Part shown: in pieces, positions 29,554 through 58,519 of the stretch
Layout: every line of letters begins with the position of its first letter
Position numbering within the stretch: position 1 is the stretch's first letter
Source: Octopus vulgaris
Lineage: Eukaryota
DNA: 64,000 bases
Assembly: GCA_951406725.2 (NCBI GenBank)
Contig: OX597816.1
Location: 166,842,001-166,906,000, forward strand
Direction: 5' to 3'
Translations under genes and position numbers: made by a program
The notes under the pieces: model-generated
The model's input: only the letters and a program-made list of their open reading frames with translations
The model's database searches: none
What the model was told of the DNA's origin: nothing

Positions 29554-31577
29554 TTAGTTCACTTTTTTGTTTTTTAAAGAAGTTTTTCGCTCAAGATAAA
29601 CGGCATAATGCAAAACGCCCTTCTTATTTACGTAACCCACAAGCAGTTTCGGGAAATAGCTTCCTCTAAAGTAATGATAAGCGATAACTTCACCTACACC
29701 TGAAGCAGTAAGGTTATGTTTAAAGAGACCTTGTCTGGTAGTGTCTCTGCGATAAATTACCGAAAATCGAGGTTTTTTATAGCGGCTTGAGGAATCCAGG
29801 TATGTCATGACTCGGCCAGATTTGAAATTTAGCTTCATACTAAAGATAAGATCTCGTAAACTGATATTCATATACTCTTTAGAAAATTTAATGGGTTTCT
29901 TTTCCAGAATAAAGCATACCAATGGCTCGTGGTTTATGTGGAAAAAACTTTGAATCCTCGGAACGTAACCCTTCTCGTTATATACATGAGCGAAGAGTTT
30001 ATAACTTTGAGAATATTGCCGAATTCCGAATTTAATATCCACTGGGGGTTCGCTTTCCTTGTTAAAAAGTGCCATATATTTTTGCGTGCCTCCGTGTGAA
30101 TAACTTTTATATGTTTGTATCAATTTCAGGTAGGCATGACTTTCTGCGTAGACATGCTTGTAATGTAGAAGTCTCTTTTCCTCTAAACCATGTTCGAGGT
30201 AGAAGGCGTCTGGAGTTTGACCAGGATTAAAGTGGGCTATAACACTGAAAAAGGTTTTTTCTTTAAACTCATAAGCACTAATCCATTCCACTTTAAAGTC
30301 TTGTTCTCGGATGGCACTAACATATGCTGAAATATGTCTCTCTGGTACTTGATACTTAACGATACGCGATCCTTCGGCTGGAGTACCAATTTGAATGTCT
30401 GATAGATCGTAATTGAAATAATCAGGAGTATGAAGATCAAAATTCTTTGCAAAATGTAAAATTTCTTTGTTGAATAAATTTTTGTTCTTTCTTCCAACTA
30501 ACAGCATCACAAATGCATCAGCTGACGAATGTGTTGAGTTGTGGTGTTTATGCATAGACTTCAACAATCCTTTATGATAAAAGAGCATATCATCTGTGTT
30601 CATGTCACTTTCTTGCCAAATATGGCCATGTTTGTTGACATTGATCCCAGCTCCCATCCAACTATCGACATGTCCAACTACACGGCTTGGTTTCTCCAAG
30701 AGCATTCTTACTCCGGATGCGTTGAGAAGATGATGGTCGCCAGAATAATCCAAACAACGAGAAAAGCGCATTACATCATAAACGTTGGAGTGCCATTCAA
30801 CTCTGGCATGTTCTGGTGGAGCATGTAAGGTATTGGACGGCATATGTAATACAGCACCGTTCTTCTTGTTTTTCTCATCATGGTGGTGGTTAGCGATGCT
30901 ACCCTTTGTATGCCACATACCACACGGCTCCAGAATGTTCTTACGAACAAAATCAGCGTAGCCTAACTCTTGTACCTTCTCGATAATTCGTTCCAATATG
31001 ACGTAACCAAAATTTGAGTATGTTGAGTGTGTACCTGGTCGATCGTGAAGAGGAAGGGAAATGACATATCTGATGACGTCTCTCAGTTCTAATGGTCGAG
31101 ATAACTTCATGATGTCAGTTATGTTGGGTACACGGTAGCCTTTAGATAAATATACAGAGTTCAGCAGAGGATCAAACAGAGGTGGTTTGTTTGCGTTCCA
31201 ACCAGCAGCGTGGCGCAGCAGATCATCAATTGTTATATCATACAACAGTTTGTCAGTATGATGAGCGCCCCACGGTTTCAAATGACCTAAAATTCCTCTT
31301 TTACCAAATACTTTATTTGAGAGCACCAATTTGTTTTCTTCGGCTAATTTCAGAATGGAGACTGCAGTAAACATCTTGGCAATGCTTGAAACCGGGAACA
31401 ACGTTTCTGGGGTGATTTTGTGTTCTTTATGCAATTTCCCGTAACCTCTGGCATAAATAAGTTTGCCATGTCGTGATAAAGCAATCGCTGCCCCTTCGTA
31501 CTGATGTTTGTTCAAAAATTTATTGAATGCCTCATCAAATGATTTATTGGTTGGCAGTTGATGATCAACACACACAC
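29554..31577 (-). CDS. Exon 2 (main coding exon) of a secreted serine beta-lactamase/PBP-like hydrolase with five C-terminal BTRD1/polyglycine-hydrolase-like repeats
   Basis: Uninterrupted 683-codon ORF of normal composition. Motifs: GAAIALSRHGKLIYARGYG, F-x-x-S-SIAK (SxxK, 31386-31375), LLRHAAG, PG-x4-YSN (YxN, 31020-31012). Preceded by polypyrimidine tract and acceptor (tttctttctcttccatAG, AG at 31579-31578), phase 1. Confidence 0.93.
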
Positions 31578-32072
31578 CTATGGAAGAGAAAGAAAACAAA
31601 ATCATTTCAATTACTGGAATTTAATTAATGAAATACAAATACAAAATCATATTTTCATTCATCCTAAGAAGCAATTCATCTGTTTATACAGTTTGAGTTC
31701 AAATTCCGACGAGGTCGACTTTGCCTTTCCTCCTTTCAGAGTCGATAAAAAAAAGAACCAGTTGAGCCCTGAGGTCGATGTAATCGACTTACTCCCTCTC
31801 TCGAAATTGCTGGTCTAGTGCCAACATTTGAAACCAATGAGTAAGGCTGTTGCTGTTTTTTTTTTGTTTTTTTTTTCTTGCGAGCGAAGAACAGTGAAAG
31901 GGTAGGAAATCTTCGTTCGACTCCATTCTTTCATTTATTCATATAAAAAAAACACACAAATTACCACACAAGAACACGAGGTTTCTGCCCTTGACATGTA
32001 GCTTCAACCGTGTTTTCTGACGTGAATTTGCTACCCAGGTATCGATTAACCGAATTATCAATACTAGGATAA

Positions 32073-32154
<82 letters not shown>

Positions 32155-32211
32155 TGTATGTATGTATGTATGTATGTATGTATGTATGTATGTATGTATG
32201 TATGTATGTAT

Positions 32212-32952
32212 ACAATGGAAACACCTAGCATCAGACCATCATAATTTTGAAATATCTATAAAACCATCAAAAGCTTGTTTATTTTTGTTTTGGGATTTAT
32301 TATTTGTGTTGCTTAATATGTTTTGCTAAAATTGCTGTTTCTTTTCAGACATCAGAAAAAGGTAATTAAAATTCATTAAAATGACAGATCTATCGGACTT
32401 TCAAAGAGGTCAAATTGTTGGTGCTTGTATGGTAGGCGCTAGCGTAACGAAAACAGCTGAAATGTTTGGTGTATCAAGAAATACTGTCTCGAAAGTATTG
32501 ACACCCTTTGAGAAACCTACTCGTCGAAACAAAACTCCGAAAGAAAACCAAAACTTTCAGATAGGCACCGCCGGACTCTTACGCGAATTGTTAGAAAGGA
32601 TCACAAAAGTACAGCTCCCAAAATTACTGCAGAGTTTAATGACCTCCTCGATAACCTAGTTTCTACAAAAACTGTTCGCCGGGAGCTGCACAAAGCCGGA
32701 TTTCACGGGAGGGCTGCAATCAGAAAACCACTACTTTCAAAAACAAACGTTGCAAAGAGTTTAGAGTGGAGTAAAAACCTACAGAACTGGTCCCTAGAGC
32801 AGTGGAAGAATGTTATTTACTCGGACGAGACATCCTTTACCTTATTTCCGGCCACCGGCCGAATATACGTGTGGCGGCAGCCAAAGGAAGCATTTGACCC
32901 AGACTGCATTCTTCCAGCTGTTAAATATAGAGGATCTGTGATGATCTGGTGT
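32212..32952 (+). mobile_element. Tc1 (DD34E-type) transposon, frameshifted and 3'-truncated
   Basis: MTDLSDFQRGQIVGA..GASVTKTAEMFGVSR; TVRRELHKAGF..RKPLL; WKNVIYSDETSF; GSVMIW. Confidence 0.9.
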
Positions 32953-33112
32953 GTGCATATATATATATACACACACACGCACACTAGCATAGCTAGAGAG
33001 TGTGCCCCCCCCCCCGGACCTCACAAAAAACACATGTCTACAGCAGACCCAAAAGTACCGCCCCTATCGCCCCTACACGCACACACACTAGCTCCGCTAG
33101 TGTATATATATA

Positions 33113-34291
33113 CTAACTGAATTACCCGGTACTACCCGGAAAAACGGGTGTTATTTCCAGTTCCCGTTCCCATTACACTGTTTCATGTCCTATCCTGTTC
33201 CCTATTCATTTCCCGTTTAAATATTTCAAATAGATTTACAAATACACCGTGACGTGGAATAGATTTACAAATACTGGGAAATAATGCAGTTGAATCATAA
33301 AATTAATTGATTGAAATGGTAAAGTAATATCAAAGTTGAACTGGTGGATGGTTGGACGGATGAGAGGGTTCACGATGTGCGAGTATGAAACGATTGATTG
33401 ATGACCGATTACTAGCAATTTTGTAGAGCCTCTTGGTATACTACATATTTGATCATGTCCTCTGGAGTATAAATAAATAACTGATTTGGTTTGCTGACAC
33501 TTGAGTATCCTACATACAGTTGGCCATAGGAAAAAGCAGGTTCAGAGACCTATCTGTAAAGGAAGGCATGGTCTGACATAAAATAAACAGAAATTTATAT
33601 AAGATTATTATAGGCGCAGGAGTGGCTGTGTGGTAAGAAGCTTGCTTACCAACCACATGGTTCCGGGTTCAGAACCACTGCGTTGGCACCTTAGGCAAGT
33701 GTCTTCTACTATAGCCTCGGGCCGATCAAAGCCTTGTGAGTGGATTTGGTAGACGGAAACTGAAAGAAGTCCGTCGTATATATATATATATATATATATA
33801 TGCATGTGTGTATATGTTTGTGTATATGTGCTTGTCCCTCCAACATCGCTTGACAACCGATGCTGGTGTGTTTACGTCCCCACAACTTACCGGTTCTGCA
33901 AAAAGAGACCGATAGAATAAGTACTAGCCTTACAAAGAATAAGTTCTGGGGTCGATTTGCTGGACTAAAGGCGGTGCTCCAGCATGGCCGCAGTCAAATG
34001 ACTGAAGCAAGTAAAAGAAAGAAAGAAAAGAATTGTAAAAATTGCCCGACAACGACAGGCTATTTATTCATCTATGGAAGAAAATGAAAGACATTATCTT
34101 CAGTTTTCTTGTTTCAGTACATTGGTAAAATTTTAATAAATACGGTGATTTGAAAACAAATATAAAAACACATTGCCTTTCACTTGTTAGTTTTACATCT
34201 GTTGTTGGAGATGTAAAAATTTTGACTGAGCAGACGATAGTTAATTCACTAAAGCGCATGCGTTAACTGATAGGTAAAAATTCAGTAAACA

Positions 34292-34371
<80 letters not shown>

Positions 34372-34679
34372 TGCTCAGTCCCTATTTCGCCCTCTCTATA
34401 TCTTTTTGTTTCCTCCCCTTCTCTGATATCAGTCACGCTCATTGTATCTATCAACCACCACATTTCCCTCACGCTAACACTTCTGTACCTTTCTCATTCT
34501 ATCATATAATAGCCCAGCCCCCGTAGGGGGCCCACTAGCGATTTTTATTGAAATCAAATTAGCCTGTAATTGAACTGGATATTAGCTTGACATGTATGCA
34601 AACTTTCGTGAAGATTGGTTCGCTGATTTAGACAGTCAGATGGTAACAGACAGACAGAAATTGCCATCTATATACAAGA
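33113..34679 (-). mobile_element. Older Helitron-like element containing a nested SINE
   Basis: Ends actaactgaattacccggtactacccgg and gacagacagaaattgccatctatatacaagat resemble the Helitron termini above. Confidence 0.5.
33612..34027 (+). mobile_element. SINE family A (full length)
   Basis: ggcgcaggagtggctgtgtggtaag ... ggcggtgctccagcatggccgcagtcaaatgactga. Confidence 0.9.
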
Positions 34680-34705
34680 TATATATGTATGTATGTGTGT
34701 GTGTG

Positions 34706-35187
34706 TGGAGGCGCAATGACCCAGTGGTTAGGGCAGCGGACTCGCGGTCGCAGGATCGCGGTTTCGATTCCCAGACCGGGCATTGTGAGTGTTTATTGAG
34801 CGAAAACACCTAAAGCTCCACGAGGCTCCGGCAGGGGGGGGGGCTTACTGTACCCTTTCTTCCTGTTTCAGTTGTACCTGTATTTCAAAGGGGCCAGCCT
34901 TGTCACACTCTGTGTCACGCTGATTCTCCCCGAGAGCTACCTTAAGGGTACACGTATCTGTGGAGTGCTCAGCCACTTGCACGTTAATAAATTAGTTGCA
35001 ACGTCACTGGTGCCAAGCTGTGTCGGCCTTTGCCTTTCCTTTGAATAACATCGGTGGCATGGAGAGGGGAGGCCAGTATGCATGGGCGACAGCTGGTCTT
35101 CCATAAACAATCTTGCCCGGACTTGTACCACGGAGGGTAATTTTCTAGGTGCAATCCCATGGTCAGTCATAATCGAAGGGGATCACA
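34706..35187 (+). mobile_element. Chimeric SINE (family C body plus family E tail)
   Basis: C sequence to ~34985, then gttgcaacgtcactggtgccaag..ggtgcaatcccatggtca as in 17250-17587. Confidence 0.8.
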
Positions 35188-35189
35188 AC

Positions 35190-35276
<87 letters not shown>

Positions 35277-35372
35277 CACACACACATACATATACATATA
35301 TACATTCATACATATACACATACGCACACGCGCACGTACACACGCACGCATACACATGCACGCACACACGCG

Positions 35373-35433
<61 letters not shown>

Positions 35434-35679
35434 TCCATGCAAGCGGTGGTAGGTTCAGGCAGTAGAGTTGAAAACAGTGAAGAAACATGTTTGCTCTGAT
35501 TTCATTGACAGAATGTCAACAATGTCGGTCGTTTTCGTTGTTTTCCGTGTAAACACGTAAGACTTCGCCGCATCTCTTTGATCTTTAACTAATGTTGGCC
35601 ACAAAGGTTAAAGGGTCGGTTTCAAGTCTCAACAAGCTTCTCTTTGACTATTGTTATTATTATTATTATTACCATATAA

Positions 35680-35908
35680 AGGCGGCGTGCTGGCAGAATC
35701 CTTAGCATGCCGAGCGAAATGCTTAGCGGTGTTTCGTCCGTCTTCACGTTCTGAGTTCAAATTCCACCGAGGTCGACTTTGCCTTTCATCCTTTCGGGGT
35801 CGATAAATTAAGTTCCAGTGAAACACTGGGGTCGATGTAACCGACTCATTCCCTCCCCCAAAATTGACTGCCCTTGGGGCAAAATTTGAAACCATTATTA
35901 TTATTATT

Positions 35909-35970
<62 letters not shown>

Positions 35971-36175
35971 GAGCTGGCAGAATTGTTAGCACGCCAGGCG
36001 AAATGCTTATCGGTATTTCGTCCGTTTTCACGTTCTAAGTTCAAATTCCGCCGAGGTCGACTTTGCCTTTCATCTTTTCGGGGTCGATAAATTAAGTTCC
36101 AGTGAAAAACTGGTGTTGATGTAATCGACTCATCCCCTCCCCTAAAATGGCTGGCCTTGTGGAAAGATTTGAAAC

Positions 36176-36178
<3 letters not shown>
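35680..36178 (+). mobile_element. Two SINE family B copies separated by (TTA)/(TAA)n
   Basis: Both end ...aaatttgaaacc followed by (att)n. Confidence 0.85.
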
Positions 36179-36265
<87 letters not shown>

Positions 36266-36434
36266 TTTATGGCTTACTTAGAAAGGAAAGTATGTACCCA
36301 TGACATTCACCTACCCATTCTAACGTTCTAATATGGATATAGTCGATGTTCTGTAGTGCTTATAATATGTGCATATATCTGTGTGTGTGTATAGGTTTTA
36401 CCGTCTTTAAAAACCGAGGAAGAACAGCTTGGAT

Positions 36435-36671
36435 CAGTGTTTCTTAATCATTTTTAATCCATGGATCCCTTTGATTTCTATTTTATTCATGTGGACCCTC
36501 ATAAACATTCGCTGTTTAAAAATCCTATAATAGTTTCATAATCAAATATTATTAGGAAATATATTTAAAAATTGTTAAAATATTTTGTGTACTATAAAAG
36601 TATGAGCAATTTATTGCTCATAAGTTGTAATAACAAAATCTTATCTGGATACCCAAGGTTGAGAACGACTG
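36435..36671. mobile_element. hAT-like MITE
   Basis: TIRs CAGTGTTTCTTAA / TTGAGAACGACTG; degenerate 8-bp TSD gcttggat/gattagat; homologous to 48999-49618. Confidence 0.7.
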
Positions 36672-38054
36672 GATTAGATAATGTCGTACAAGCAACAAGT
36701 AAAATGGCGGATTTCTTACGGCTGCAATGCTTTTGTAGGTAGGATTGCTCGATCAGAGGAAATCAAGGGTCAAGGTTCAAATAACAAACAACAGGTAATA
36801 GAATCCATCCATCACCACCTGTATTTCATAAAGAAAACTTGAGAAAGATACCTCACATTATATTTCACGGTAGACCAACACAACCGCTACCAACAGCGTC
36901 GCTATCATCACTAACATCACCATCAGCATCTCCAAATCTACTACCAACGCTACCATCACCTCTACAACACCAACATCACAACAACCACTACCGCCACAAC
37001 CACCGCCATCATCACCACCACCATCACTATCACCACTGCTGCCACTACCACCATCACCACCAGGGCGCTGTTTTGAGAAGATCTTACACATTATTATGAA
37101 TGACTTAGCTGCTAAGATTATTCAGCGTAAAATTATATTCTGTATACTCAATATGGCCGAAGGACAAAAATACGAAAATGCCTGTCGAGGTGTTGGGGTA
37201 GCTCTGCTTACTAAATACAAGTATGGCAGAGTCTCACATATGGAATACAGGGGGTGAGTTGATAAATCTCGAGAAATGGAAATTTTTCTAACAATTTACT
37301 AGAAAAAGACTTCCTCTAAGCAATCTTCGATTTCCTGCTTGTAAAGAGGAATGCTAAACCTTGTCGACCTTATTGGCTGTTGGGCGGTGAGAGGGGCTTC
37401 GAAGGCGCTTGGGTACATCTCTCTTTTTCTAGAATATATATTTTTGATAAAATGGGGAGATAATCTCCACAAGATCTGTTAATTGAAACTTTTGATCAAT
37501 CTGAAGCAACGATTTTAGTAAAATATGCAGAGCTAATTTCGTGATTAATTTGAATTTACATTAATGATTTTTATATCATATTTAATCAATAGTTTAATTA
37601 GTGGGTAAAAGTGCGTTGCGTATCGAGTAGGTTGTTGTACTCACACTCGCTGGATCGTGGTGTCGTGGTTTCGATTCCCAGACCGAGTGGTGCATTGTGT
37701 TCTTGAGCAAAATACTTTATTCAACATTGCTCCAGTTCACTCAGCTCTAAATGAATAACTCTGCAATGGACTTGCGTCCAGTTCACGGGGTATGTTGCGA
37801 TCTCGGTCATTTAGACGTCATGAAAACAGGGTAACCATCTCAATGAGTCCAAGAACTCGAGACAGACTTCAATTTTCAGTCACTGAATGAAAGGAACTAC
37901 CAATGACCTCTGAGACTGGGATAGAGGTGCGAATTAAGTTATCCTTAAGCAGAAGACTTGGTCCGAATTCTTGCAACCGTGGATTCTCTTGAAAATATCT
38001 AAGGGCCAGATGGTGGGGTTAAACTAAGCTAAAGATTACCTCTCATATATGTAT

Positions 38055-38248
38055 CTTTTATTTGTTTCAGTCATTAGACTACGGCCATGCTGGGGCACTG
38101 TCTTTAGTCGAACAAATCGACCCCAGGACTTATTCTATCGGTCTCTTTTACCGAAGCACTAAATTACGGGGTCGTAAACACACCAGCATCGGTTGTCATG
38201 TGATGATGGGGAGGACAAACACAGACACACACACACACACACACACAC

Positions 38249-38291
<43 letters not shown>

Positions 38292-38412
38292 TTATAAGTA
38301 AGGGCAAGCCTTACTTATAAATTGTTTATAAATTTAACCTTTAAAGGTGTTTTTTAATATGTTGGCCATTGATAGAATTTTTTTTGAAGAAAAATTCTAT
38401 CCTATATTAGAT

Positions 38413-38480
<68 letters not shown>

Positions 38481-38639
38481 CAGGCTTCTTTCAGTTCCCG
38501 TCTACCAATCTCCCTTAGAAGGCTTTGGTCGGCTCGAGACTATAGTAGAAAACACTTGCCCAAGGTGCCAACGCAGTGGGTCTGAACCCGGAGCCATGTG
38601 GTTGGTAAGCAAGCTCCTTACCACACAGCCACTCCTGCG

Positions 38640-38643
<4 letters not shown>
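38055..38643 (-). mobile_element. SINE family A split by an insertion in its internal microsatellite
   Basis: 3' half 38055-38270, 5' half 38478-38643, with a foreign ~130-bp segment between them. Confidence 0.75.
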
Positions 38644-38682
<39 letters not shown>

Positions 38683-38939
38683 TTCTTCTTCTCTGCCAGA
38701 ATTCACAACGACCTCGAACCCACAAGAGTAAACAAGAGAGACAGAGACAGGCAGAAACAAGGAACGTGTCCCTTGTATTTGAATACTATCCAAATATTCT
38801 TTTTAAAAACTTTTCATTTAATTTTTTAAAAATTTAATTGTTTTCCATAATTACAGTTGAAAAAGTCTCAATGACCGAAACCGGTACGGAAATGATTTTT
38901 TATAAAATTATTTTAGCATTTTCTACCATGACTTTTTTT

Positions 38940-39002
<63 letters not shown>

Positions 39003-39157
39003 CACACACAGCACATACACACACGACGGGCTTCTTTCCATCTACCAAATGCATTCAAAAAGCCTTGGTCGACCCGACACTATATAGTGGGGGACACTTG
39101 GCCAAGATTTTACGCATTTTGGAAGCATTGTGCTTGGAAAGCAAACTTCTTACCACT

Positions 39158-39556
39158 CAGCTGGCAGAAACGTTAGCACACCGGGCGAAATGCCTAGCGG
39201 TATTTCGTCAGCCGTTACGATCTGAGTTCAAATTCCGCCGAGGTCGACTTTGCTTTTCATCCTTTCGGGATCGGTTAAATAAGTACCAGTTACGCACTGG
39301 GGTCAATATAATCGACTTAATCCGTTTGTCTGTCCTTGTTTGTCCCCTCAGTGTGTAGCCTCTTGTGGGCAGTAAAGAAATAGGTATTTCGTCTGCCGTT
39401 ACGTTCTGAGTTCAAATTCCGCCGAGGTCGACTTCGCCTTTCATCCTTTTGGGGTCGATTAAATAAGTACCAGTTACGCACTGAGGTCGATATAATCGAC
39501 TTAATCCCCTTGTTTGTCCCTTCTATATTTAGCCCCCTGCGGGCAATAAAGAAATA
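39158..39556 (+). mobile_element. SINE family B dimer
   Basis: Two cores with the tail gtttgtcc..aaagaaata. Confidence 0.85.
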
Positions 39557-41182
39557 TATTTTAGTATCTTTATTTAAGGGAGAAAAGCTGTTGTGTGAAA
39601 ACTAAAACTCTAATTTAGACACCCAGCAGGGTTTTTGCTAAATCCAATTTTGGAAATAGGAAAAGCTTGAAGACAAAATAAATAGAAGCATTGAAAGTGG
39701 GGCTTTTGGGTTCGGTCTGTTGGTTACGCAGCGACACCTGCATTCAATTTCCTGTGTCTGTGTCTCGACAAAATCTTCACACGAATTCTTTGATTCTTTT
39801 TTAGAAGCCAAGCCGGAGTGATTAGTAATGGTGCGGGGTGGAGTGACGGTGACGGCGATGGTGATGGCGGAGGTGATGGATGCGGCGGCGAAGGTGGTGG
39901 TGTTGGTGATAGAGGTGACGGTGGAGGTGTGGGTACTGTTGGTGGTGTTGGTGGAAGCGGTGTGGGGTGATGATGTGGAATGGTGCTGCTGCTGCTGCTG
40001 TTGGTGATGGTGGTGATGGTGGTGACGGTAGGCAATGACACACAAAAGTAGATTCCAAGTTATTTCTGAAACATTTGAAGTTGTTGTTGTTGTTGACGGT
40101 GGCGGCGGTGGCGGGGGGCGGCGGCGGTGGTGGTAGCGGTGGTGGTGGTGGTGGTGGTGGTGGTGGTGGTGGTGGTGGTGGTGGTGGTGGTGGTGGTGGT
40201 GGAGGTGGTGGTGGTGATGGTGGCCGCGGCGGCGGCGTTGGCGGCATCGGCGATGATAGAGGTGATGATGGTGGCAGCGGTTGTGATGGCTTTCGTCTTG
40301 TCGTAGTTGTTATTGTTGCCGTAGTATTCCAGATACCAATTTGAAACGTTACTTAGAAATAGATTGACTTCCTATCACAAGGATGTATGTGTAAGACACC
40401 GGCCCTTAAATAGCCTTGGGAAATTAAGGACCCAGGCAGCAAAAACAATTACCACAAGGAATTCTATCAAAAGTCCATAAAAAAACACTGCCACTCGAGC
40501 CATTAATGTTGTTCTAGCTCTCAAACAAAAGATAGGACTCCGGTTGGAAAATGCCTTTGACTATAAAGTCTGTTTGATCAGAGCCTGGAGCCAAGCAACA
40601 ACAACATCAATAGCAACAACAACATCAATAGCAACACCAACAACAACAACAGCAACAGCAACACAATCTCTGAGAAATATAATTCATTCTTATTCGGGTC
40701 GTGTGAGTTTCTCAGTGGTTTGGGAAAACTTACGATTTATCCAAAACAAACCTGACGTCTTTACCATAAAAGGAAACCAAAATCTCAGTTTTGTACCCAA
40801 CCCCTACCTTTTCCAGGTATTCTTATTATTCCTGTATACGGGGTCAATAGGTGTATATGATTTAATTATACATGCACCTACAGAATTGTGCGGGATGTAA
40901 AGAGAAAAGATAAGACCGTTAGTCTGAAATAATGCGTTGATTTCCTGTCATTCAATGAGGAAGTCTCTACATGGTTGCTCGCCATACAAGAATATGCAGC
41001 CATATTTATATCCGTCAAGTTACACTCCCAGTTGCCTTAACAAGTGAACGATACGTTGAATAATGTATTTCTAGATATACTGTGTTAATAAAAGATGGGG
41101 TGGTCACATTTGGAAAGCTTTTTGATCATAGGTCAGAACTGATTTGGATAGTCTACCTAAAACATTGAATCATTGGGTCACG

Positions 41183-41220
<38 letters not shown>

Positions 41221-41439
41221 TATATTGATAGAAGTAGATTTCATAAACTAAGATTACACTCAGGTCCAAGAACCTGAGGATGGATACAGAGTTGCAGAAA
41301 ATGCCCTCTGAGCACTCACATCAAATATAAAGGAGTATGTTGTTTCTTTTGTGTAACCCCATTTCCATCACACACACACACACAAACACACACACACCTC
41401 GGATTTTTCGTTCTATTTTCGTTGTTCCTCCTCCTCTAC

Positions 41440-42720
<1,281 letters not shown>

Positions 42721-42735
42721 GTATTTTATTTTATG

Positions 42736-42792
<57 letters not shown>

Positions 42793-43428
42793 TTATGTTT
42801 TCTTATGTTCTCTTTCAACACTCACAATAGGCAGGAAGCAAAGTAGGTTGTTCTTTCACCATAAAAGATGTCAAAACTGATGCCATGTAATAAAAAAATG
42901 CATAAACGAAAAACAAACAAAAACAACAAGAAAGAAAAAAAAAACAGAAAATTACAAGAAGTAGATGTGTGGAAGAAAAGAAATAAAAACTCTGAAGGAA
43001 TAAGGTTAATAGTTTTATAACAACGGATGTGAATGAGCAAGGCTAGTTTATCTGATGGAATGTTCTAGGTTTCGGGTTATGCCGCCATAACGCTTTCCTT
43101 CCTACACCCTAATGGCGGGTAGTAGAAGGGGGTTGTGATAGATCTTGTGCCAGGAATTCAACTTTCTTGACACAATATCCGGTAGCGAATCAGAAAGGGG
43201 GTTACTGGATGTAAAAGTAAATAACTTGGTTGTTAAAACAGAACGAAATTCCTACCTGGATTATTTCGGCTCAAATATGAAAGACGAAAATTGAGAAAAT
43301 AGACTTGGGAAAATTTTTTTTCAGAGGGAAACTTTCAAATTTAAGTTTTGTTCAGAATTTGTAATGCATGTATGTATGTATGTATGTATGTATGTACGTA
43401 TGTATGTATGTATGTATGTATGTATGTA

Positions 43429-43465
<37 letters not shown>

Positions 43466-43687
43466 ATGTATGTATGTATGTATGTATGTATGTATGTATG
43501 TATGTACACACAGAGTTATACGAAGAGTAGACAGACAGCAACTAATGAAGGGTCCTTTCTCTGTGTTTACTTGTCCTATTTTCAATATTTTTCTCCCATT
43601 GTTTACGTATTTCATGTTTTTGCACCTTTGGTGATGCCCTGTACTCATATATGCATATATGCATATAAGTATATATGCATATATGCA

Positions 43688-44070
43688 TGTAAGTAGCCTG
43701 CTTACCAACCACATGGTTCTGGGTTCAGTCCCACTGCATGGCACGTTGGGCAAGTGTCTTCCACTATAGCCTCGGGCCGACCAAAGCCTTGTGAATGGAT
43801 TTGGTAGACGGAAACTGAAAGAAGCTCGTTGGATATATGTATATATATGTATATGTATGTGTCTGTGTATGCTTGTGTGTCTGTGTTTGTCACCCCAACA
43901 TCGCTTGACAACCGATACTGGTGTGTTTACTTTCCCGTCACTTAACGGCTCGGCAAAAGAGACCGATAGAATAAGCACTGGGCTTACAAAGAATAAGTCC
44001 TGGGGTCGATTTGCTCGAGTAAAGGCGGTGCTCCAGCATAGCCGCAGTCAAATGACTGAAACAAGTAGAA
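43688..44070 (+). mobile_element. SINE family A
   Basis: Homology to the other copies. Confidence 0.88.
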
Positions 44071-44093
44071 GGAAGCATATATATATATATATG

Positions 44094-44134
<41 letters not shown>

Positions 44135-44174
44135 AATAAATTATTTATTTATTATATATATATATATGTATATG

Positions 44175-44232
<58 letters not shown>

Positions 44233-44410
44233 CATACATACATATATATACACACACAAACTCACACATGTTTTTATACACAATTCATACATCTATACAC
44301 TTACACGCACTGATTAAGATATGTACTAGACTTAAAAAGAATAAGTACGGCCCATCAAAGTGGTGCCCCAGCCTGGCCGTATGGCAATGCCTGAAACAAG
44401 TAAAAGACAA

Positions 44411-44467
<57 letters not shown>

Positions 44468-44848
44468 GTGCTGTGCTGTGCTGTGTTGTCATATATACGG
44501 TGGTGTCATGACACACTAAAAAAATGCGGCGACATGGGGGTGGTGTATACGGTTTGGGGTGAACGTCGGCTTAAATGACACAATTTTGCTTTTATCAGAT
44601 GTTACCTGCAAAAGAATGTGTTCGCCGAGTCATTGTCACAGCCCAGTGCGCGCAGGAATTTCAAATGATTGTATTTAAATTGCCTGAAAGTCTATAAGTA
44701 ATGTGTTTATCAGATTAGAAATATCAGGGGTCCCTAGAAGTAGTGCAAAGGCGTGAAAGAGAAGTTTGAAACGATTTGGCGCAGTCGTTTTGGCGCCGCC
44801 CATTTGAGCTCCGACGTTTTAAGATTTCTCTCCCTCTTTCTCACTCCT

Positions 44849-44923
<75 letters not shown>

Positions 44924-44981
44924 GAGTATATGTCTTTGTGTATGAAGAAGGTAAAAGTGTTTCTATGAATCGTGTTCATAT

Positions 44982-45396
44982 ACTCTTTTACTTGTTTCAG
45001 TCATTTGACTGCGGCCATGCTGGAGCACCACCTTTAGTCGAGCAAATCGACACCAGCACTTATTCTTTGTAAGCCTAGTACTAATTCTATCGGTCTCTTT
45101 AGCCGAACCGCTGAGTTACGGGGACGTAAACACACCAGCATCGGTTGTCAAGCGATGTTGGGGAGACAAACACAGACACACAAAAATATGCACACACACA
45201 TACATACATGTATACATATACATATATGCGACGGGCTTCTTTTAGTTTCCGTCTACCAAATCCACTCACAAGGCTTTGGTCGGTCGGCCCGAGGCTATAG
45301 TAGAAGACACTTGCGCAAGGTGTCACACAGTGGGACTGTACCCGAAACCATGTGGCTGGTAAGCAAGCTACTTACCACACAGCCACTCCTCCGCCT
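44982..45396 (-). mobile_element. SINE family A
   Basis: Reverse-complement full-length copy. Confidence 0.88.
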
Positions 45397-46116
45397 ATAT
45401 AATTATTTGTGATATCTCTGCCTCTTTCCTATTCTTTTGATCCGTGTATGCATATTTCTTTGTGTCTGTGTTTGTCCACCCCACCGCTCGAAAACTGGTG
45501 TTGGCTTTGTTTACACCTCCGTAACTAAGCGGTTCGACAAAACAGTCCGCTAGAATAAGTACCAGGCTTTTAAAATATAAAGTACTGGGGCTGATTCTTC
45601 GACTAAACTTCTTTAAAGCGGTTCCCCCGCATGGCTGTAGTCTAATGAGCGAAACAAGTATAAGAGAAACGATATGAAAATAACACCGCGATACAACATG
45701 AATTAACATATTTATGGCATAAACCAACCAATCATAAGGCGTCGTTTGGGATTTTTGGTTCGTGGGGCTTTTTCTTCTTTTTTTTAAAACTTTCTGGCAC
45801 CACTCTCGAAGGGAAGTTATTCAGCTCCAAGATGTCTTCTTTGATTGGGTAGTTTAACTCTTGTTTTTTGAATTTTTAAGAATCCATAGAATACATTCGA
45901 ACAGATGTAGCAATAGATATTGCGTTTGGAGTTAAATTAGTGAAGGGCAAAAAGAATCAAATTATTCAGACAAGCCCTTTCCGAGGCCATTGGACTAAAA
46001 AGCTTCTGGAGATTGCTGAGACATGAAACTCTGAGTTCGTACAACTTCCAAATGAAGACAGTGTGTGATGATTTGTACAACTTTACAAAGTAACGAGTTT
46101 CAATTATATATATATA

Positions 46117-46149
<33 letters not shown>

Positions 46150-47213
46150 TGTATGTATGTATGTATGTATGTATGGATGGATGTATGGATGGATGGATGG
46201 ATGGATGGACGGACGGACGGACGGACGGACGGACGGACGGACGGATGGATGGATGGATTCGTGTGTTTCAAGAACTAAACCAGGGTAACGACATCCCAAC
46301 GTTTCCTAAATAAAAGCTATCGTATTTACTCGTATTTACTCGTTTATAAGTCGCACTATTCTATTCTTGATTTTAAGTGGGAAGCAAAAAGCCTGGGTGC
46401 CACTTATAAACGGGCAAATATAAAATTATAAAGGGAAAAAAATTTGTACCAAGATTTAACACAAAATTAGAAGTGTGACTTATTACACTACTAAATAACT
46501 AAATCATTTGGCTATTTGATATCAGCTCTGATAAAGTTCTTCATGCTTCCGCTGTCAACTGAAATGTGTGTTGATTGAAAGTTAATTACAAAATAAACAA
46601 ACGCACGAGGATAAATGACTGTCTCATTAAAGCTGAAAAACTTAAACAGAGTTGAAGAGATTCATACGTTCGAGATTGGTTTATCGTCTGCTTTATAATG
46701 GCGTCCTGTAGAGTCATCACGTGATTTATAAACATGAAAAAACACGGCCGTTTTTATCTCACACTTGCGATATGACATATCTTGATGGGTATTTTCTGTA
46801 GCTATGTCTATACTCCAAACGAAAGAAAACTAAAACAAATATACTATGAGAAGCAACAGCTGAAATAGCTTGCTCAGATTCTGACTGCATTTTTCTTTGC
46901 AACTGTAATAGCATTTAAAAGGATATTCTGATTAACTGTTAGCATTCTATAAAGCTGAGTCTAACGTTATGGTTTGTGAGAATGCTGTTGCTTTTAAGTG
47001 GAACGTTTTATTTTTGAGTATAGTGTGTCAAGTATCCATTAAACAATTTTTTAAGCGACACACCCTTGGAAGCTGAACTCATGCCAAAAGTCTTAAGACT
47101 TGAAGAAATTGATCCCGTGTTTCTAGTGGCGGTTGCTCACAAGCTATAAGTTGATGTGTTAAAATACGCTCATCGACTGATTTAATGTGAATACTCTTTA
47201 TGCACTTCATCAC

Positions 47214-47424
47214 CTCTTTTACTTGTTTCAGTCATGTAACTGTGGCCATGCTGGAGCACCGCCTTTAGTCGAGCAAATCGACCCCAGGACTTATTTTTTG
47301 TAAGCCTAGTACTTATTCTAATGGTCTCTTTTGCCGAACCGCTAAGTTACGGGGACGTGAACACACCAGGATCGGTTGTCAAGCGATGTTGGGGGGACAA
47401 ACACAGACACACAAACATATACAC

Positions 47425-47481
<57 letters not shown>

Positions 47482-47645
47482 TACGACAGGCTTCTTTCAG
47501 TTTCCGTCTACCAAATCCACTCACAAGGCTTTGGTCGGCCCGAAGCTATATTAGATAACTCTTGCTCAAGGGGCCACGCAGTGGGACTGAACCCTGAACC
47601 GTGTGGTTGGTAAGCAAGCTACTTACTACACAGCCACTCCTGCAC
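47214..47645 (-). mobile_element. SINE family A
   Basis: Reverse-complement full-length copy. Confidence 0.88.
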
Positions 47646-47819
47646 CTTAAATACAATAGAAATATTTTTAAAGAATAAACAAGAAATTTGTAGTTTTAAG
47701 ATCGTGTATTTTTTTTTCCTTGAGTCCCAGGACTTATAAGGAGGCTTCCAATTTCATGGCGTGTAAGGGGCTGAGGTGACACCGTTCCTCCTGAACGAGT
47801 CGACGGTCCTACGCGGAGT

Positions 47820-48280
47820 TGAAAGCCAGTAATTTTGAAGGGGGGGAGTCGATTACATTGAACCCCACTCTCGGTAGTTGACTGGTATTTTGTTTTATCA
47901 ACCACGAAAAGGCCAGTCGATTAGATTGACCCCAGTACGTAACTGGTACTTAATTTATCGACCATGAAAGGATGAAAGGCAAAGTCGACCTCGGCGGAAT
48001 TTGAACGCAGAACGTAGAGACAGACGAAATACCTATTTCTTTACTACCTACAAAGGGTTAAACACGGAGAGGGCAAACAAGGACAGACAAACGGATTAAG
48101 TCGATTATATCGACCCCAGTGCGTAACTGGTACTTATTTAATCGACACCGAAAAGATGAAAGGCAAAGTCAACCTCGGCGGAATTTGAACTCAGAACGTA
48201 GCAGACGAAATACTGCTAAGCAGAGGAAATACCGCTAAGCATTTCGCCCGGCGTGCTAACGTTTCTGCCAGCTCGCCGCC
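47820..48280 (-). mobile_element. SINE family B array
   Basis: Reverse-complement cores. Confidence 0.85.
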
Positions 48281-48660
48281 TATTAATGACTTCATCTACT
48301 CTCTTTGCGAGATTTTAATTAGATTAAGAAATTTTGTGTAAGCTATTTGTGGGACGCACCTGTTTCTAGCGCCTCCGGCGACCGCCTACTTTGTGAAGTA
48401 TGTAACACCGTCCTTGATCTTCAAAAGGAACGATAAGATATCTGTACACCTAGAGTTTATTCAACAAATAATATCACAGCTCGATATCCGGTTTAAGTAA
48501 AGGCGGAGTACCCACACACCTTAAGATACTCGGTTATCAAAAGAACGCAAAAGTTACAAGTTCTTAGACAAAAGCATTACAGCATCATAAAGATATATTT
48601 CTAGATGCTTGACGATAATTAGTTTTTACTTATTTTTTAAATTTTATTTGAAAATACATT

Positions 48661-48883
48661 GGGGTTCCTATATACGAACATAGCGTAGCGTTCGTATATG
48701 CTCTCCCAGTACGTATACGCGTGCGTGGTCTACACGTGGTTTGTTATTCAAATTTCAACGCGTTGTTTGCTCGTGATTCGTGCATCAAATTTCAGCTCTT
48801 TATGGGGGTTTAATTTTTTTCAGAAAAACACTTCGTTATTCAATTTGTTCGTTTTTAGAGAACCGTTCGTATATAGGTACCCC
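48661..48883. mobile_element. MITE with 19-bp TIRs (PIF/Harbinger-like)
   Basis: GGGGTTCCTATATACGAAC ... GTTCGTATATAGGTACCCC (1 mismatch); 3-bp flanks att/act. Confidence 0.7.
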
Positions 48884-48998
48884 ACTATATGTGATTAAAG
48901 CGATACCATACCCACTTTCAATACGTTCAAGCAGATTCAAACGTGAATATCTTATCACCGTTGTTTTTTTCGTCATCGGAGAACATCTCCCCTTAGAC

Positions 48999-49618
48999 CA
49001 GTGGTGCTTAATCATTTTTTTACCTATGGACACCTTTGATTTCTATTGTATTCTACTGGACCTCTATGGCCATTCACTGAATTAAAAAATATATATATTA
49101 CTGTACTTCTAAAATTGAATATTACAGGTATCTAACCTCTTATCCGGAATTCATAAATCCGGAATTACCAGAAATCCGGCTATTTTTGAAACTGGCCAGC
49201 TTAGAATTTTGCGGGCTGTAGTAGTTCGCCGCGCGGCCGTTTTGTTTTGGTTTCCGTGGCGTATACGTCACCACAGGATGCCAGATCAAACAGAGCCTGC
49301 TTTAGAAATGTATTAATTTGTATATGTTACACAATTTTGTTCTTTACTTTTCGTTGTTTGTTTTATATTTTCGCTATATATTTAGCCTATGTCCAGAAAT
49401 CTGGAAAATCCAGAATTCCGGGAAATCAGAAATCCGGAAACTCCAGAAATTTGGATCACCTCCGATCCCAAGGTTGCTGGATAAGAGGTTTGCTACCTGT
49501 ATTAGGAATTGTATTTAAAAAATTAAAATATTTTGTAAGTAATTTATTGCTCATAAATTTTAACAAAATCTTATATGGAACCACAAGGGTCATATTGACC
49601 CCGGTTGGGAACCCACTG
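48999..49618. mobile_element. hAT-like MITE with a nested insertion
   Basis: TIRs CAGTGGTGCTTAA / TTGGGAACCCACTG; 8-bp TSD ccttagac/ttttagac. Confidence 0.75.
49125..49499. mobile_element. Tc1/mariner-pogo-type MITE nested in the hAT MITE
   Basis: TA|CAGGTATCTAACCTCTTATCCGG ... CTGGATAAGAGGTTTGCTACCTG|TA; subterminal ATCCGGAA repeats. Confidence 0.8.
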
Positions 49619-50079
49619 TTTTAGACGATGCGCATTCATAACGCCCATGATTCGCTGGATTAAAACGGAAATATAAATTCCTTACCGTTTTAGTTTAGTC
49701 TAACCCAGCAGACTTATTATGACTAATCGTTAACAAACCCATATTTCCTATTTTCGGGCGTATGGTGTACCTAGGAAAACATTACTCAATGCCTCTGTAT
49801 CGTTTTGTAAACAGCGGGGTTTAATTTGCGGTGAGGTTTGGCTGCTATTTTTAGCATGTCAAGTAGTCACGTTGGGCGATGGAGGAGGATGTTACTCATT
49901 GGTTTGTAATATTAGAATGTGGATATCTAAGTTGGAGATTTGTAAACAAAAGTGTCAAATATCAACACAACTGTCGAGAATCTATCTAAATATATAGTTC
50001 TTATAAACAGATTCTGCTTCTTCTTCTAATTATTATTATTATCATTATTATTATTATTATTATTATTATCATTATTATT

Positions 50080-51007
50080 AAAGCATTCGCCGAACTAGAA
50101 TCAAGCCTTCACCGAACTAGCAGAAGACGAATGTCTGGTGCTTTCAAATCACCAGTGCTCCGGGTAGGCTGAGGTCGTTAACCTTGGATGGCAATCAACC
50201 TAGGTGAAGGACCACTCTGGTTTCAAAACGAAGGGAACAAGGCCTCTTCCTCCTTGGGGGGCGACCTTGTTAGATAGAGATGGTGTCTCAATTAAAATAC
50301 CTATTTCTTTATTACCCACAAGGGGCTAAATACAGAGGGGACAAACAAGGACAGACATAGGTATTAAGTCGATTACATCGATCCCAGTGCGTAACTGGTA
50401 CTTAATTTATCGACCCCGAAAGGATGAAAGGCAAAGTCGACCTCGGCGGAATTTGAACTCACAACGTAACGCAGACGAAATACCGCTAAGCATTTCGCCC
50501 GGCGTGCTAACGTTTCTGCCAGCTCGCCGGTTGGTGGTAACCTAAAAGCGCAACTCCTTTATGAGTGAAAATGTGAAGCACAAATAGCTAAAGATAACGG
50601 TGTGGATAGGACTGGAACTAATGATGAAGGTGCCGCATCTGACAGGTGTCCCATTGTGCAGCAGGGAGGGCCCGGTCGTAATCCAGCCACTGCTAACCAC
50701 GTTGCGAGACAAAAGTGGAGTAAACAAGTAAACGTGGTGATTATGGAGTGTTACTATCGGAGCATTCCAGTTGATGCAAATGGCGTGCCAGTCGGAGGAT
50801 ACAGACAACGATGTGTTAGTACTCAACTACAAACACGGCTCAAAAAGATTGGTACAAATGTAAAGATAGAACACCTACAAAAGTCATCATTGCTTGGAAG
50901 TGCAAGGGTTTTCCGAAAAGCTTTTGAAGCATGATCAGTAAACAAGTGTCACCTTAGTCTGATGGCTGTAGATAGCAGCAAAACAAGCTAAAAGTTTTCA
51001 TCAAACA
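50080..51007 (+). mobile_element. Internally deleted R4/Dong-like element (ORF N-terminus fused to C-terminus), SINE inserted at ~50297-50528
   Basis: ORF 50602-50934 joins RQKWSKQVNVVIMECYYRS..GYRQR (Dong/R4-type N-terminus) to LQKSSLLGSARVFRK (RLE C-terminus). Followed by (TAA)n. Confidence 0.65.
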
Positions 51008-51013
51008 ATAATG

Positions 51014-51053
<40 letters not shown>

Positions 51054-51055
<2 letters not shown>

Positions 51056-51608
51056 GCCCTGATGTAGTACCAAGCAGTGGCTCTCGTGGCTTCTGATCTT
51101 CACTGATTGGAAGTGTTATCATGTACATTGTTTTTTCTTGGTATAAAAGATGGGCTACAGCAAATATTCTGCTCAATACCACAGATTTGCTTGTCAGTTA
51201 TTTTACCTTAACCAGTTGACCATGTCCCTTAGTGGCTGACAATATGTGCATCTCTGATCACGAGCAGAAGTAGTGGGGGAGCATCATAGCTATGGGTTGA
51301 GAGAATTTTGGGGGGTTTGAATAATTCACCTCTGGAAACATGGGTGTTTCGTTCAACATCCTTAAACAACCCTTATTCAGGGACCTATTGAGCGGGATGG
51401 GTTACTCGACCAGACGAAAATTCTAACTGGGTCCCACCTGCAAGGTCATGTGCTGTTTATCTTGTTATGAGATCACCATGTCGCGCACATATGGTTGTGA
51501 TGCATGTGCCTGATGTACCCTTATCAGACGGGTAGTCATGATGGGTATACTGGGCTTCGTATATTTTACCCCAGTGTCACTTTGATGGCATGCACTGCTC
51601 TCTCACTC

Positions 51609-51648
<40 letters not shown>

Positions 51649-52113
51649 TTGTTTTGTCTTGGTATAAAAGATGGGCTACAGCAAATATTCTGCTCAATAC
51701 CAGATTTGCTTGTCTGTTGATTAACCTTAACCAGCTGAGCATGTCCCTTGATGGTTGACGATATGTGCATCTCTGATCACGAGCAAGAGTAGTTGGGGAG
51801 CATCATAGCCATGTGTTGAAAGGACTTCTTAGAGGAATGGATAATTCACCTCTGGAAACATGGGTGTTTCGTTCAACATCCCTTATGAGCGGGATGGGCT
51901 ACTCAACCAGAACAAAATTCTAACTGGGCCCCACCTGCAAGGTCATGTGCTGTTTATCTTGATATGAGATCACCATGTCGCGCACATATGGTTGTGATGC
52001 ATGTGCGCATGTGCCTAGTGTACCCTTATCAAACGGGTAGTCATGATGGGTATACTGGGCTTCGTATATTTTACCCCAGTGTCATTTTGATGGCATGCAC
52101 TGCTCTCTCATTC

Positions 52114-52162
<49 letters not shown>

Positions 52163-52760
52163 TTGTTTTGTCTTGGTATAAAAGATGGGCTACAGCAAAT
52201 ATTCTGCTCAATACCAGATTTGCTTGTCTGTTGATTAACCTTAACCAGTTGAGCATGTCTTTTAGTCGCCGACAATATGTGCATCTCTGATCCCGAGCAG
52301 GAGCAGTGGGAGAGCATCATAGCCATGTGTTGAGAGGAATTCTTAGAGGTTTGAATAATTCATCTCTGGAAACATGGGTGTTTCGTTCATCATCCTTAAA
52401 ACAAACCTTATTCAGGGACCTATTGAACGGGATGGACTACTAGGCCTGAAGAAAGTTCTAACTGGCCCCACCTACAAGGCCATGCTCTGTTTCTCTTGAT
52501 ATTAGATCACCATATCGTGCACATATGGTTGTGATGTATATGCCTGGTGTACCCTTATCAGATGAATAGTCATAATGAGTACATTGGGCTTCGTATATTT
52601 GCACACCAGTGTCACTTTGATGGCATGCACTGCTCCCTCACTCAATAACAATAAAAATGCGTTCAGCTACAATACCAGGTAATGGCTTTCATGGTTTCTG
52701 ATCTTAACTGATTGGAAGTGTTAACATGTACACAGATTTGCTTGTCGGTTGCTTGATCTT
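51054..52760 (+). repeat. Tandem array of a ~470-560-bp non-coding interspersed element (family D) punctuated by (TAA)n
   Basis: Units ~51054-51610, 51647-52114, 52161-52645 plus a partial fourth; each ends in a ctctcactcaa-like motif followed by TAA repeats. Confidence 0.9.
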
Positions 52761-52828
52761 AACAATTAGTGTAGGGAAGATGAGGGAAAGTAAAGGGAGA
52801 GGAGGGTGAATGAGATAAAATTATACAT

Positions 52829-53115
52829 AGGCGCAGGAGTGGCTGTGTGGTAAGTAGCTTGCTAACCAACCACATGGTTCCGGGTTCAGTCCCACTGCGT
52901 GGCATCTTGGGCAAGTGTCTCCTGCTATAGCCCCGGGCCGACCAATGCCTTGTGAGTGGATTTGGTAGACGGAAACTGAAAGAAGCCTGTCGTATATATG
53001 TATATATATATGTGTGTGTGTGTGTGTTTATGTTTGTGTGTCTGTATTTGTCCCCCTAGCATTGCTTGACAACCGATGCTGGTGTGTTTACGTCCCCGTC
53101 ACTTAGCGGTTCAGC
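52829..53115 (+). mobile_element. SINE family A, 3'-truncated
   Basis: Intact head; ends after cttagcggttc. Confidence 0.85.
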
Positions 53116-53429
53116 CACTGAACAGAGAAACACAACCGTGTTAAAGTTGGTTGGTGGGGCGGTCCTCAGCCGATTGTCAGATGTCCTACACGCGTCAACA
53201 GCTGTTCGATAGAGAACTCCACAAGTCAGTAGTATTCCAGCATTCCACGAGTGCATGCATTACAGTTTCGTCCAAATTTTGGCACAAGGCCAGTAATTTT
53301 GAAGGGAGGGGGGCTTAATCGATTACAATGACCCCAGTTAGAACTTGAATGGTAATTCATGTTATCGCTCCCGAAGGGATGAAAGGCAAAATTGACCTCA
53401 GCGATATTTAGATGTCCTACACGAGTCAA

Positions 53430-53897
53430 AGGTGGCGAGCTGGCAGAAACGTTAGCATGCCGGGCGAAATGCTTAGCAGTATTTCGTCTGCCGCTACGTT
53501 CTGAGTTCAAATTCCGCCGAGGTCGACTTTGTCTTTCATCCCTTGTGGGTAGTAAAGAAATAGGTATTTCGTCTGCCCTTACGTTCTGAGTTCAAATTCC
53601 TTTCATCCTTTCGGGGTCGATTAAATAAGTACCAGTTACGCACTGGGGTCGATATAATCGACTTAATTCGTGTGTCTGTCCTTGTTTGTCCCCTCTGTGT
53701 TTAGCCTCTTGTGGGCAATAAAGAAATAAGAAACGTTAGCATGCCGGACGAAATGCTTAGCTGCATTTCGTTCGTCTTTACTTTCTGGCTTTGTCTTTCG
53801 GAGTCGATCAAATAAGTACCGGTTGGACACTGGAGTCGATGTAATTGACTTAGCTCCACCCCGAAATTGCTGGCCTTGTGCCAAAATTTGAAACCAA
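53430..53897 (+). mobile_element. SINE family B array with internal deletions
   Basis: Head plus three partial cores. Confidence 0.8.
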
Positions 53898-55229: not shown

Positions 55230-55236
55230 ATTTATT

Positions 55237-55278
<42 letters not shown>

Positions 55279-55521: not shown

Positions 55522-55579
<58 letters not shown>

Positions 55580-56127: not shown

Positions 56128-56176
<49 letters not shown>

Positions 56177-58228: not shown

Positions 58229-58272
<44 letters not shown>

Positions 58273-58466: not shown

Positions 58467-58519
<53 letters not shown>

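Follow-up and report, generated by a model that had tools for sequence, protein, structure and literature searches.

A likely secreted S12-type serine hydrolase with a C-terminal five-repeat barrel in Octopus vulgaris, from an apparently undescribed animal family

The minus-strand frame 31577-29554 of the window (the whole 64,000-nucleotide stretch of Octopus vulgaris DNA that was analysed) is open throughout and forms exon 2 of a two-exon gene. The predicted protein of 693 aa combines a beta-lactamase/PBP-fold (S12-type) serine hydrolase domain with a C-terminal domain that is, on the basis of structural models, a five-repeat BTRD1-type barrel. Both domains are known, and the pairing of PF00144 with PF17660 is already visible in automatic annotation; the animal family to which the protein belongs is apparently old and undescribed. 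The family includes both members with intact catalytic residues, such as the gene described here, and many catalytically degenerate ones.

Gene structure and locus

The joined translation of exons 1 and 2 is identical to P0002, an NCBI "hypothetical predicted protein" of Octopus vulgaris; the 58 bases of exon 1 match its residues 1-20 and are followed by the donor GTAAGT. The features of the gene, all on the minus strand, are as follows.

60900..60957, minus strand: coding part of exon 1, with the start codon and a hydrophobic leader (19 codons plus 1 base)
31578..60899, minus strand: intron of 29.3 kb (GT-AG, phase 1)
29554..31577, minus strand: exon 2, a 2024-base coding exon with the entire mature protein and the stop codon
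30406..31539, minus strand: beta-lactamase/PBP-fold (S12-type) serine hydrolase domain, from PF00144 and Foldseek
31375..31386, minus strand: motif I, SxxK (SIAK), with Ser84 (codon 31386-31384) and Lys87 (31377-31375)
31201..31221, minus strand: LLxHxxG (LLRHAAG), structural, kept in dead members
31012..31020, minus strand: motif II, YxN (YSN), with Tyr206 (codon 31020-31018) and Asn208
30604..30615, minus strand: motif III position, Q-E-S-D (from Gln341 to Asp344) in place of bacterial H-x-G-S, from alignment with bacterial relatives
30229..30363, minus strand: repeat 1 of the BTRD1-type barrel
30055..30204, minus strand: repeat 2 of the BTRD1-type barrel
29896..30039, minus strand: repeat 3 of the BTRD1-type barrel
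29743..29883, minus strand: repeat 4 of the BTRD1-type barrel
29584..29730, minus strand: repeat 5 of the BTRD1-type barrel

In a contig from run X8, the exon 2 sequence stops at position 31577 and loose letters from the end of exon 1 come next; this junction of the two exons indicates that the 29.3-kb intron is spliced (the run is putatively RNA). Runs X1 and X2 gave no coverage of the gene, an uninformative result. The exon-1 leader is a putative signal peptide, and hydropathy does not exceed 1.44 in any 19-residue window beyond residue 30. The combination of a hydrophobic leader with the lack of any later strongly hydrophobic window makes secretion likely. The initial annotation had also called the protein secreted, but the leader responsible lies at 60957-60900, outside the stretch to which it assigned the gene.

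The chromosome around the gene is animal and repeat-rich, and the GC content of the gene (39%) is similar to that of the host. A LINE-type reverse-transcriptase ORF of 447 aa (27075-28418, plus strand; PF00078, E 1e-24) lies 1.1 kb beyond the stop codon on the opposite strand; Mariner/Mos1-type transposase remnants are present at 8535-9191 (HTH_48 match for 8535-8927), and a divergent tRNA-Leu(TAA) gene (62725-62809, plus strand) lies 1.8 kb upstream of exon 1. An NCBI-annotated isoform of 632 aa (P0140) exits exon 2 at 29761, within repeat 4, and its last exon is a small one at about 9901-9878 (minus strand), approximately 20 kb downstream; repeat 5 would be lost in this isoform.

Catalytic domain and C-terminal barrel

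The hydrolase domain matches PF00144 over 31539-30568 (E 1.6e-39; 136 bits against a cut-off of 27). Foldseek assigns a probability of 1.00 to many PF00144/S12-fold members, and its matches include the PBP homologue 2qmi, the DL-peptidase 9sn1, the R61 DD-peptidase, and class C enzymes; esterases, too, are among the top structural matches. The best sequence matches in the PDB are 2qmi, the fungal enzyme Fvan-cmp (7TPU; second best, catalytic-domain phmmer E 2.3e-16), an FmtA-like protein, an alkaline D-peptidase, and a DD-carboxypeptidase. Some of the nearest solved structures are D-peptidases, namely 4y7p (alkaline D-peptidase), 9s7k (DD-carboxypeptidase), and 9sn1 (DL-peptidase), and another, 7TPU, is a Gly-Gly endopeptidase.

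The active site was compared across 63 aligned family rows, from which five truncated rows were removed to leave 58 scored for the catalytic Ser, Lys, Tyr, and Asn. All four residues are kept in 23 rows (intact), and at least one is missing in the other 35 (dead). The initial annotation correctly placed SIAK, LLRHAAG, and YSN in a single open frame (31577-29554, minus strand) and named PF00144 as the profile to be matched, but it listed LLxHxxG side by side with the two catalytic motifs. The His and Gly of LLxHxxG are conserved in 43 of 46 and 45 of 46 rows, respectively, whatever the catalytic state; as it is kept in intact and dead rows alike, this motif is structural, and the place of the true motif III is taken by Q-E-S-D. 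The canonical [KH]-[ST]-G was not found at motif III of the Octopus protein, where Q-E-S appears opposite the bacterial H-x-G in the alignment, and across the family H/K-x-G occurs in a single row, with motif III non-canonical in 57 of 58. The Gln is present in 21/23 intact but only 8/35 dead rows, and the Asp in 23/23 versus 15/35, counts that come from related rows and so do not represent independent events; the co-occurrence of both residues with intact sites suggests an active site under selection.

The identification of the C-terminal domain as a BTRD1-type barrel is settled by family profiles and structure; evidence from the protein's own sequence is weak. Similarity between units is low: in profile comparisons, six of the ten pairs scored above all 30 column shuffles, two pairs were equalled by 1/30 shuffles, and two by 4/30, with a strong match between units 2 and 4 only (probability 87%, E 3.8e-6). 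A Pfam PF17660 scan of the Octopus protein gave no match above the cut-off, and a C-domain sequence profile retrieved nothing significant from the PDB (best E 0.014; 7TPU was missed). Among the C-domains of 13 family members, eight match PF17660 at E<=1 (best 6e-7); the curated cut-off is passed by 26 of 30 further family representatives, and eight further family fragments are without a BTRD1 match. Each of two AlphaFold models (pLDDT 81.5 and 84.1) contains five strand-helix-strand-strand units, as has been described for 7TPU. The sole Foldseek match of the C-domain model at E<=0.001 is 7TPU (E 1.4e-6, TM 0.69), and VIA-align superposes 254 residues on the same structure (Z 24.6, rmsd 3.3 A; next chain 5.5); the region of similarity in 7TPU is the repeat domain of the fungal enzyme. 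The five BTRD1 units that the initial annotation had delimited by eye are therefore borne out by structure, and its proposed PF17660 comparison succeeds for the family but not for the Octopus protein itself. The mature protein has a predicted pI of 9.5, and the barrel one of 9.7.

When a C-domain family profile was used as the query, it recovered BTRD1 proteins, starting at E 7e-17. In a 50% library the profile matched 226 proteins, and 138 of the best 150 were scanned (nine short fragments and three proteins already known were excluded). BTRD1 is present in all 100 lower-ranked non-family proteins among the matches listed. These 100 unnamed proteins are presumably mostly microbial, and as listed they pair the barrel with an M23 peptidase (30), an S12 domain (13), another peptidase (5), or another family (7), with nothing else detected in 45. 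The BTRD1 barrel is thus a mobile module. Among the matches listed (P0265-P0366), the commonest fusion is that of M23 peptidases with a C-terminal barrel (30/100), and further partners are astacin, M57, C39, CHAT, lysyl oxidase, CAP, and glyoxal-oxidase domains. In the ESM Atlas, a query with the full-length protein reached a score of 0.97 with PF00144+PF17660 clusters, one of which is mostly eukaryotic with Mollusca commonest; with the C-domain as the query, BTRD1/DUF7477 clusters came out at 0.83-0.85, which we treat as a lead only.

Animal family, domain order and degenerate members

Family members were found in molluscs (Octopus, Argonauta, Aplysia, Candidula, Bulinus, Haliotis, Crassostrea, Mytilus, scallops, Tegillarca, and Sinanodonta), a brachiopod (Lingula), a nemertean (Lineus), echinoderms (Strongylocentrotus, Diadema, Patiria, Asterias, Antedon, and Anneissia), hemichordates (Ptychodera and Glandiceps), and amphioxus (Branchiostoma); unnamed rows were counted as animal on the grounds of their position in the clade. 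An octopus-specific novelty was rejected. Among the named members returned by the searches, which cannot prove absence, none comes from a vertebrate, tunicate, arthropod, nematode, or cnidarian. Members are annotated as uncharacterised, as hypothetical, or by a domain name only, and no description of the animal family was found in the literature within reach (subscription journals and bioRxiv supplements lay beyond it), which agrees with the initial annotation of an uncharacterised animal family.

The animal catalytic domains form one branch with SH-aLRT 100 in both trees (39 rows out of 74 in one, 24 out of 71 in the other), which are quick IQ-TREE runs with SH-aLRT support only and an unresolved root. 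Within this branch, which is long, molluscs group together and echinoderms group together. As the orthologues broadly track animal phylogeny, their sequences fit vertical descent from the protostome-deuterostome ancestor. Every tree neighbour of the animal clade is an S12 protein of bacterial or microbial type, which makes it likely that the family originated in bacteria, with no named donor group claimed. The degenerate proteins P0237 (Lineus) and P0255 (Branchiostoma) pair in both trees, as either an ancient dead subfamily or a product of long-branch attraction.

The order of the two domains, catalytic then repeat, is typical of the animal clade. Among 112 new matches to the family profile, the catalytic domain comes first in 12 animal-clade proteins and one other, the repeats come first in 33 (myxobacteria, bacilli, and others), and 66 are without the repeat; two-domain matches outside the animal clade are therefore 33 repeat-first to one catalytic-first. 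Catalytic-first order also occurs in the microbial-type proteins P0283, P0350, P0433, P0282, and P0316 (two of them fragments), so it is not unique to animals. Thus, the reversed order pointed out in the initial annotation stands relative to the fungal and closest microbial repeat-bearing relatives, but not as an animal peculiarity. In a quick tree with weak deep forks and no fungal sequences, the main repeat-first clade (24 rows, SH-aLRT 100) does not include the animal clade. The EukProt protein P0484 (TCONS_00068162) has its five BTRD1 repeats N-terminal to an intact S12 domain, together with a hydrophobic leader; it nests within the microbial repeat-first enzymes and would represent a separate transfer or a contaminant.

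Intact rows include every named echinoderm, hemichordate, and brachiopod member, whereas the catalytic Tyr, at the least, is missing from each of the five named bivalve representatives. The Octopus genome holds one barrel paralog (G000:C3:166962908-166964944; L002/L004), on the same strand approximately 60 kb upstream of exon 1, in which the catalytic Ser is replaced by Asn and the Tyr by His; it is likely to be a pseudoenzyme partner of the intact gene. The paralog has the same two-exon plan and is spliced at the equivalent position in runs X4, X8, and X9. Its barrel is not basic (pI 7.8). Identity between two Octopus species is 95% for the paralog and about 95-96% for the intact gene, and identity to the respective Argonauta orthologues is 77.9% and 77.8%. 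Fifteen other exon-sized PF00144 matches in the genome (C4, C5, C6, C12, C14, C16, and C20; L005-L017) belong to multi-exon beta-lactamase-fold genes, in which the barrel is absent from the loci examined.

Candidate functions and comparison with known systems

Our preferred reading, to which we give a probability of roughly 40%, is that the protein is secreted and cleaves cell-wall peptides of bacteria as a D-amino-acid/glycine peptidase, by analogy with characterised relatives. Established S12 chemistry proceeds by acylation of the Ser, with Lys and Tyr as bases. From family knowledge, Ser84 would form the acyl-enzyme with Lys87 and Tyr206 serving as bases, and the pocket would prefer D-residues or achiral Gly; an acidic residue would sit where the Thr/Ser of KTG normally binds carboxylate. 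By analogy with Fvan-cmp, a site that has lost KTG would be ill suited to beta-lactams and terminal D-Ala-D-Ala, and with the acidic residue in that place the activity would be that of an endo- or aminopeptidase rather than that of a beta-lactamase or DD-carboxypeptidase. The targets would be cell-wall peptides of bacteria encountered in defence or digestion; the Gly-rich or pentaglycine substrates suggested in the initial annotation would be candidates only. The basic barrel might anchor the enzyme to a polymeric target or a partner, and the dead paralogs might retain a binding role as receptors, decoys, or regulators; both suggestions are more tentative than the catalytic steps.

A D-amino-acid/glycine specificity is favoured by the nearest characterised relatives, which prefer D-residues or Gly, and a cell-wall target by the company that the barrel keeps with M23 and S12 domains, by its basic surface, and by the proposal, in PMC2266909, that peptidoglycan digestion is the reason that animals retained PBP-type enzymes. 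Against a peptidase, S12 enzymes include esterases. Against a cell-wall target, bivalves filter bacteria and yet all five named members are without the Tyr, the paralog barrel is not basic, and the slow, tree-like conservation fits housekeeping as well as defence. In addition, a preprint cites a mutagenesis study that reportedly speaks against a substrate-binding barrel.

It is unlikely that the protein is instead a polyglycine-hydrolase-like endopeptidase acting on Gly-rich host matrix (skin, beak, sucker, egg, or shell), with the dead members as matrix components. Such a role would suit the position of 7TPU as second-best PDB sequence match and only structural match of the barrel, the catalytic degeneracy of the bivalve members, and the occurrence in bivalve shell matrix of gigasin-6, which is thought to be inactive; but gigasin-6, in the annotation available for comparison, has a transmembrane region and a name of its own, whereas family members are "uncharacterized", and the animal clade branches apart from the main group of repeat-first enzymes in the quick tree. 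Turnover or epimerisation of the animal's own D-residue peptides (achatin-type neuropeptides, D-Asp/D-Ala peptides) is a distinctly improbable reading, for which the D-stereospecific relatives and the persistence of one or two well-conserved genes since the protostome-deuterostome split nevertheless count, as does the occurrence of achatin-type D-residue neuropeptides in both protostomes and deuterostomes (PMC5818035). Small peptides are not obviously in need of a barrel of the polymer-binding type. As for the epimerisation part, S12 enzymes are not known to include an epimerase.

We also doubt that the family consists mainly of secreted binding or scaffold proteins in which residual catalysis (esterase or none) is secondary. 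The loss of at least one of the four catalytic residues in 35/58 rows, the near-universal divergence of motif III (57/58), and the dead octopod paralog, spliced in three runs and conserved like the intact gene (77.9% versus 77.8%), are what such a family would be expected to contain; yet 23/58 rows are intact at all four positions and also carry the clade-specific Gln/Asp; they span molluscs, a brachiopod, echinoderms, and hemichordates, and retention over such very long distances is hard to account for without catalysis. It is barely credible that the gene encodes a LACTB-type protein or a true beta-lactamase, or that it is a bacterial contaminant. PF00144 and class C profile matches and the single large coding exon could be read in this way; however, the match to LACTB spans just 60 residues (E 4e-7), with bacterial and fungal relatives far closer, and we rejected LACTB on this weak match, the lack of HTG, and the secretory-type leader, in line with the initial annotation, which had treated membership of a family such as LACTB as incompatible with its reading. 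The class C beta-lactamase profile (NCBIfam NF033085) reached 42 bits against a cut-off of 415 and was likewise rejected, and contamination was rejected on the splicing of the 29-kb intron, the repeat-rich animal chromosome that carries the gene, host-like GC (39%), and orthologues that broadly follow animal phylogeny.

Peptidoglycan is not made by animals, and the question of why they keep PBP-type enzymes has been put mostly about mitochondrial LACTB. The present family is a separate, apparently secreted PBP-type lineage retained in lophotrochozoans, ambulacrarians, and amphioxus, and it gives the BTRD1 barrel an animal setting. One octopus locus offers a natural active/dead pair and a clade-specific active-site motif, which makes the question directly testable. 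If the family does act on cell walls or D-peptides, invertebrate immunity, digestion, or neuropeptide chemistry would gain a further class of enzyme. A more speculative and improbable extension is that this would be a fifth animal PBP-type lineage, of bacterial origin, that predates the protostome-deuterostome split and has a domain order of its own, a rebuilt active site, and repeatedly derived dead copies, and that it supplies the missing extracellular D-peptide enzyme of invertebrates: it would degrade or epimerise achatin-type D-neuropeptides or strip D-peptides from bacterial walls, with the dead copies as D-peptide or cell-wall sensors.

The LACTB family is likewise animal, of low-molecular-weight PBP class B/S12 fold, and of bacterial descent (PMC2266909); unlike LACTB, the Octopus protein has a secretory-type leader rather than a mitochondrial location, is without [KH][ST]G, and carries a BTRD1 barrel. 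The LACTB, LACTB-like 1, LACTB-like 2, and esterase-like lineages are defined by all three motifs in the same source, a definition that the animal family fails, so it is set apart from these four lineages by definition and not by a tree. Gigasin-6, a bivalve shell-matrix protein thought to be inactive (PMC5854119, PMC6662379, and PMC5824581), is also molluscan and extracellular with a beta-lactamase domain, but in the annotation available it has a transmembrane region and no repeat family; it appears to be a different molluscan protein, a distinction drawn from annotation and not from sequence.

Bacterial "serine hydrolases" that combine BTRD1 with a beta-lactamase domain (Myxococcus xanthus, Archangium, Paenibacillus, and Bacillus thuringiensis) belong to the same S12 subfamily and repeat family. 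Bacterial S12 relatives are the closest non-animal matches, and most retain HxG, unlike the animal clade; for many of the nearest bacterial domains, standalone S12 domains included, the JGI name is N-acyl-D-amino-acid deacylase, and in one case the domain is joined to an amidohydrolase.

The fungal polyglycine hydrolases Fvan-cmp (7TPU), Bz-cmp, and Es-cmp are likewise two-domain proteins, with an S12 domain carrying SxxK and YxN and a five-repeat EHEE barrel. They are secreted, as the leader makes likely for the Octopus protein, and share with it a non-canonical motif III; Fvan-cmp departs from KTG (R563/D564), shows no nitrocefin activity, and cuts Gly-Gly (PMC9912923). The description of the Octopus protein in the initial annotation as an animal counterpart of these enzymes is apt for both domains, but probably less so for ancestry, given the position of the animal clade outside the main repeat-first clade. 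The barrel is C-terminal in the Octopus protein and N-terminal in the fungal enzymes, barrel identity is about 9-12%, motif III has Gln in the former versus Arg/His in the latter, and the animal clade, unlike the fungal enzymes, contains many dead members.
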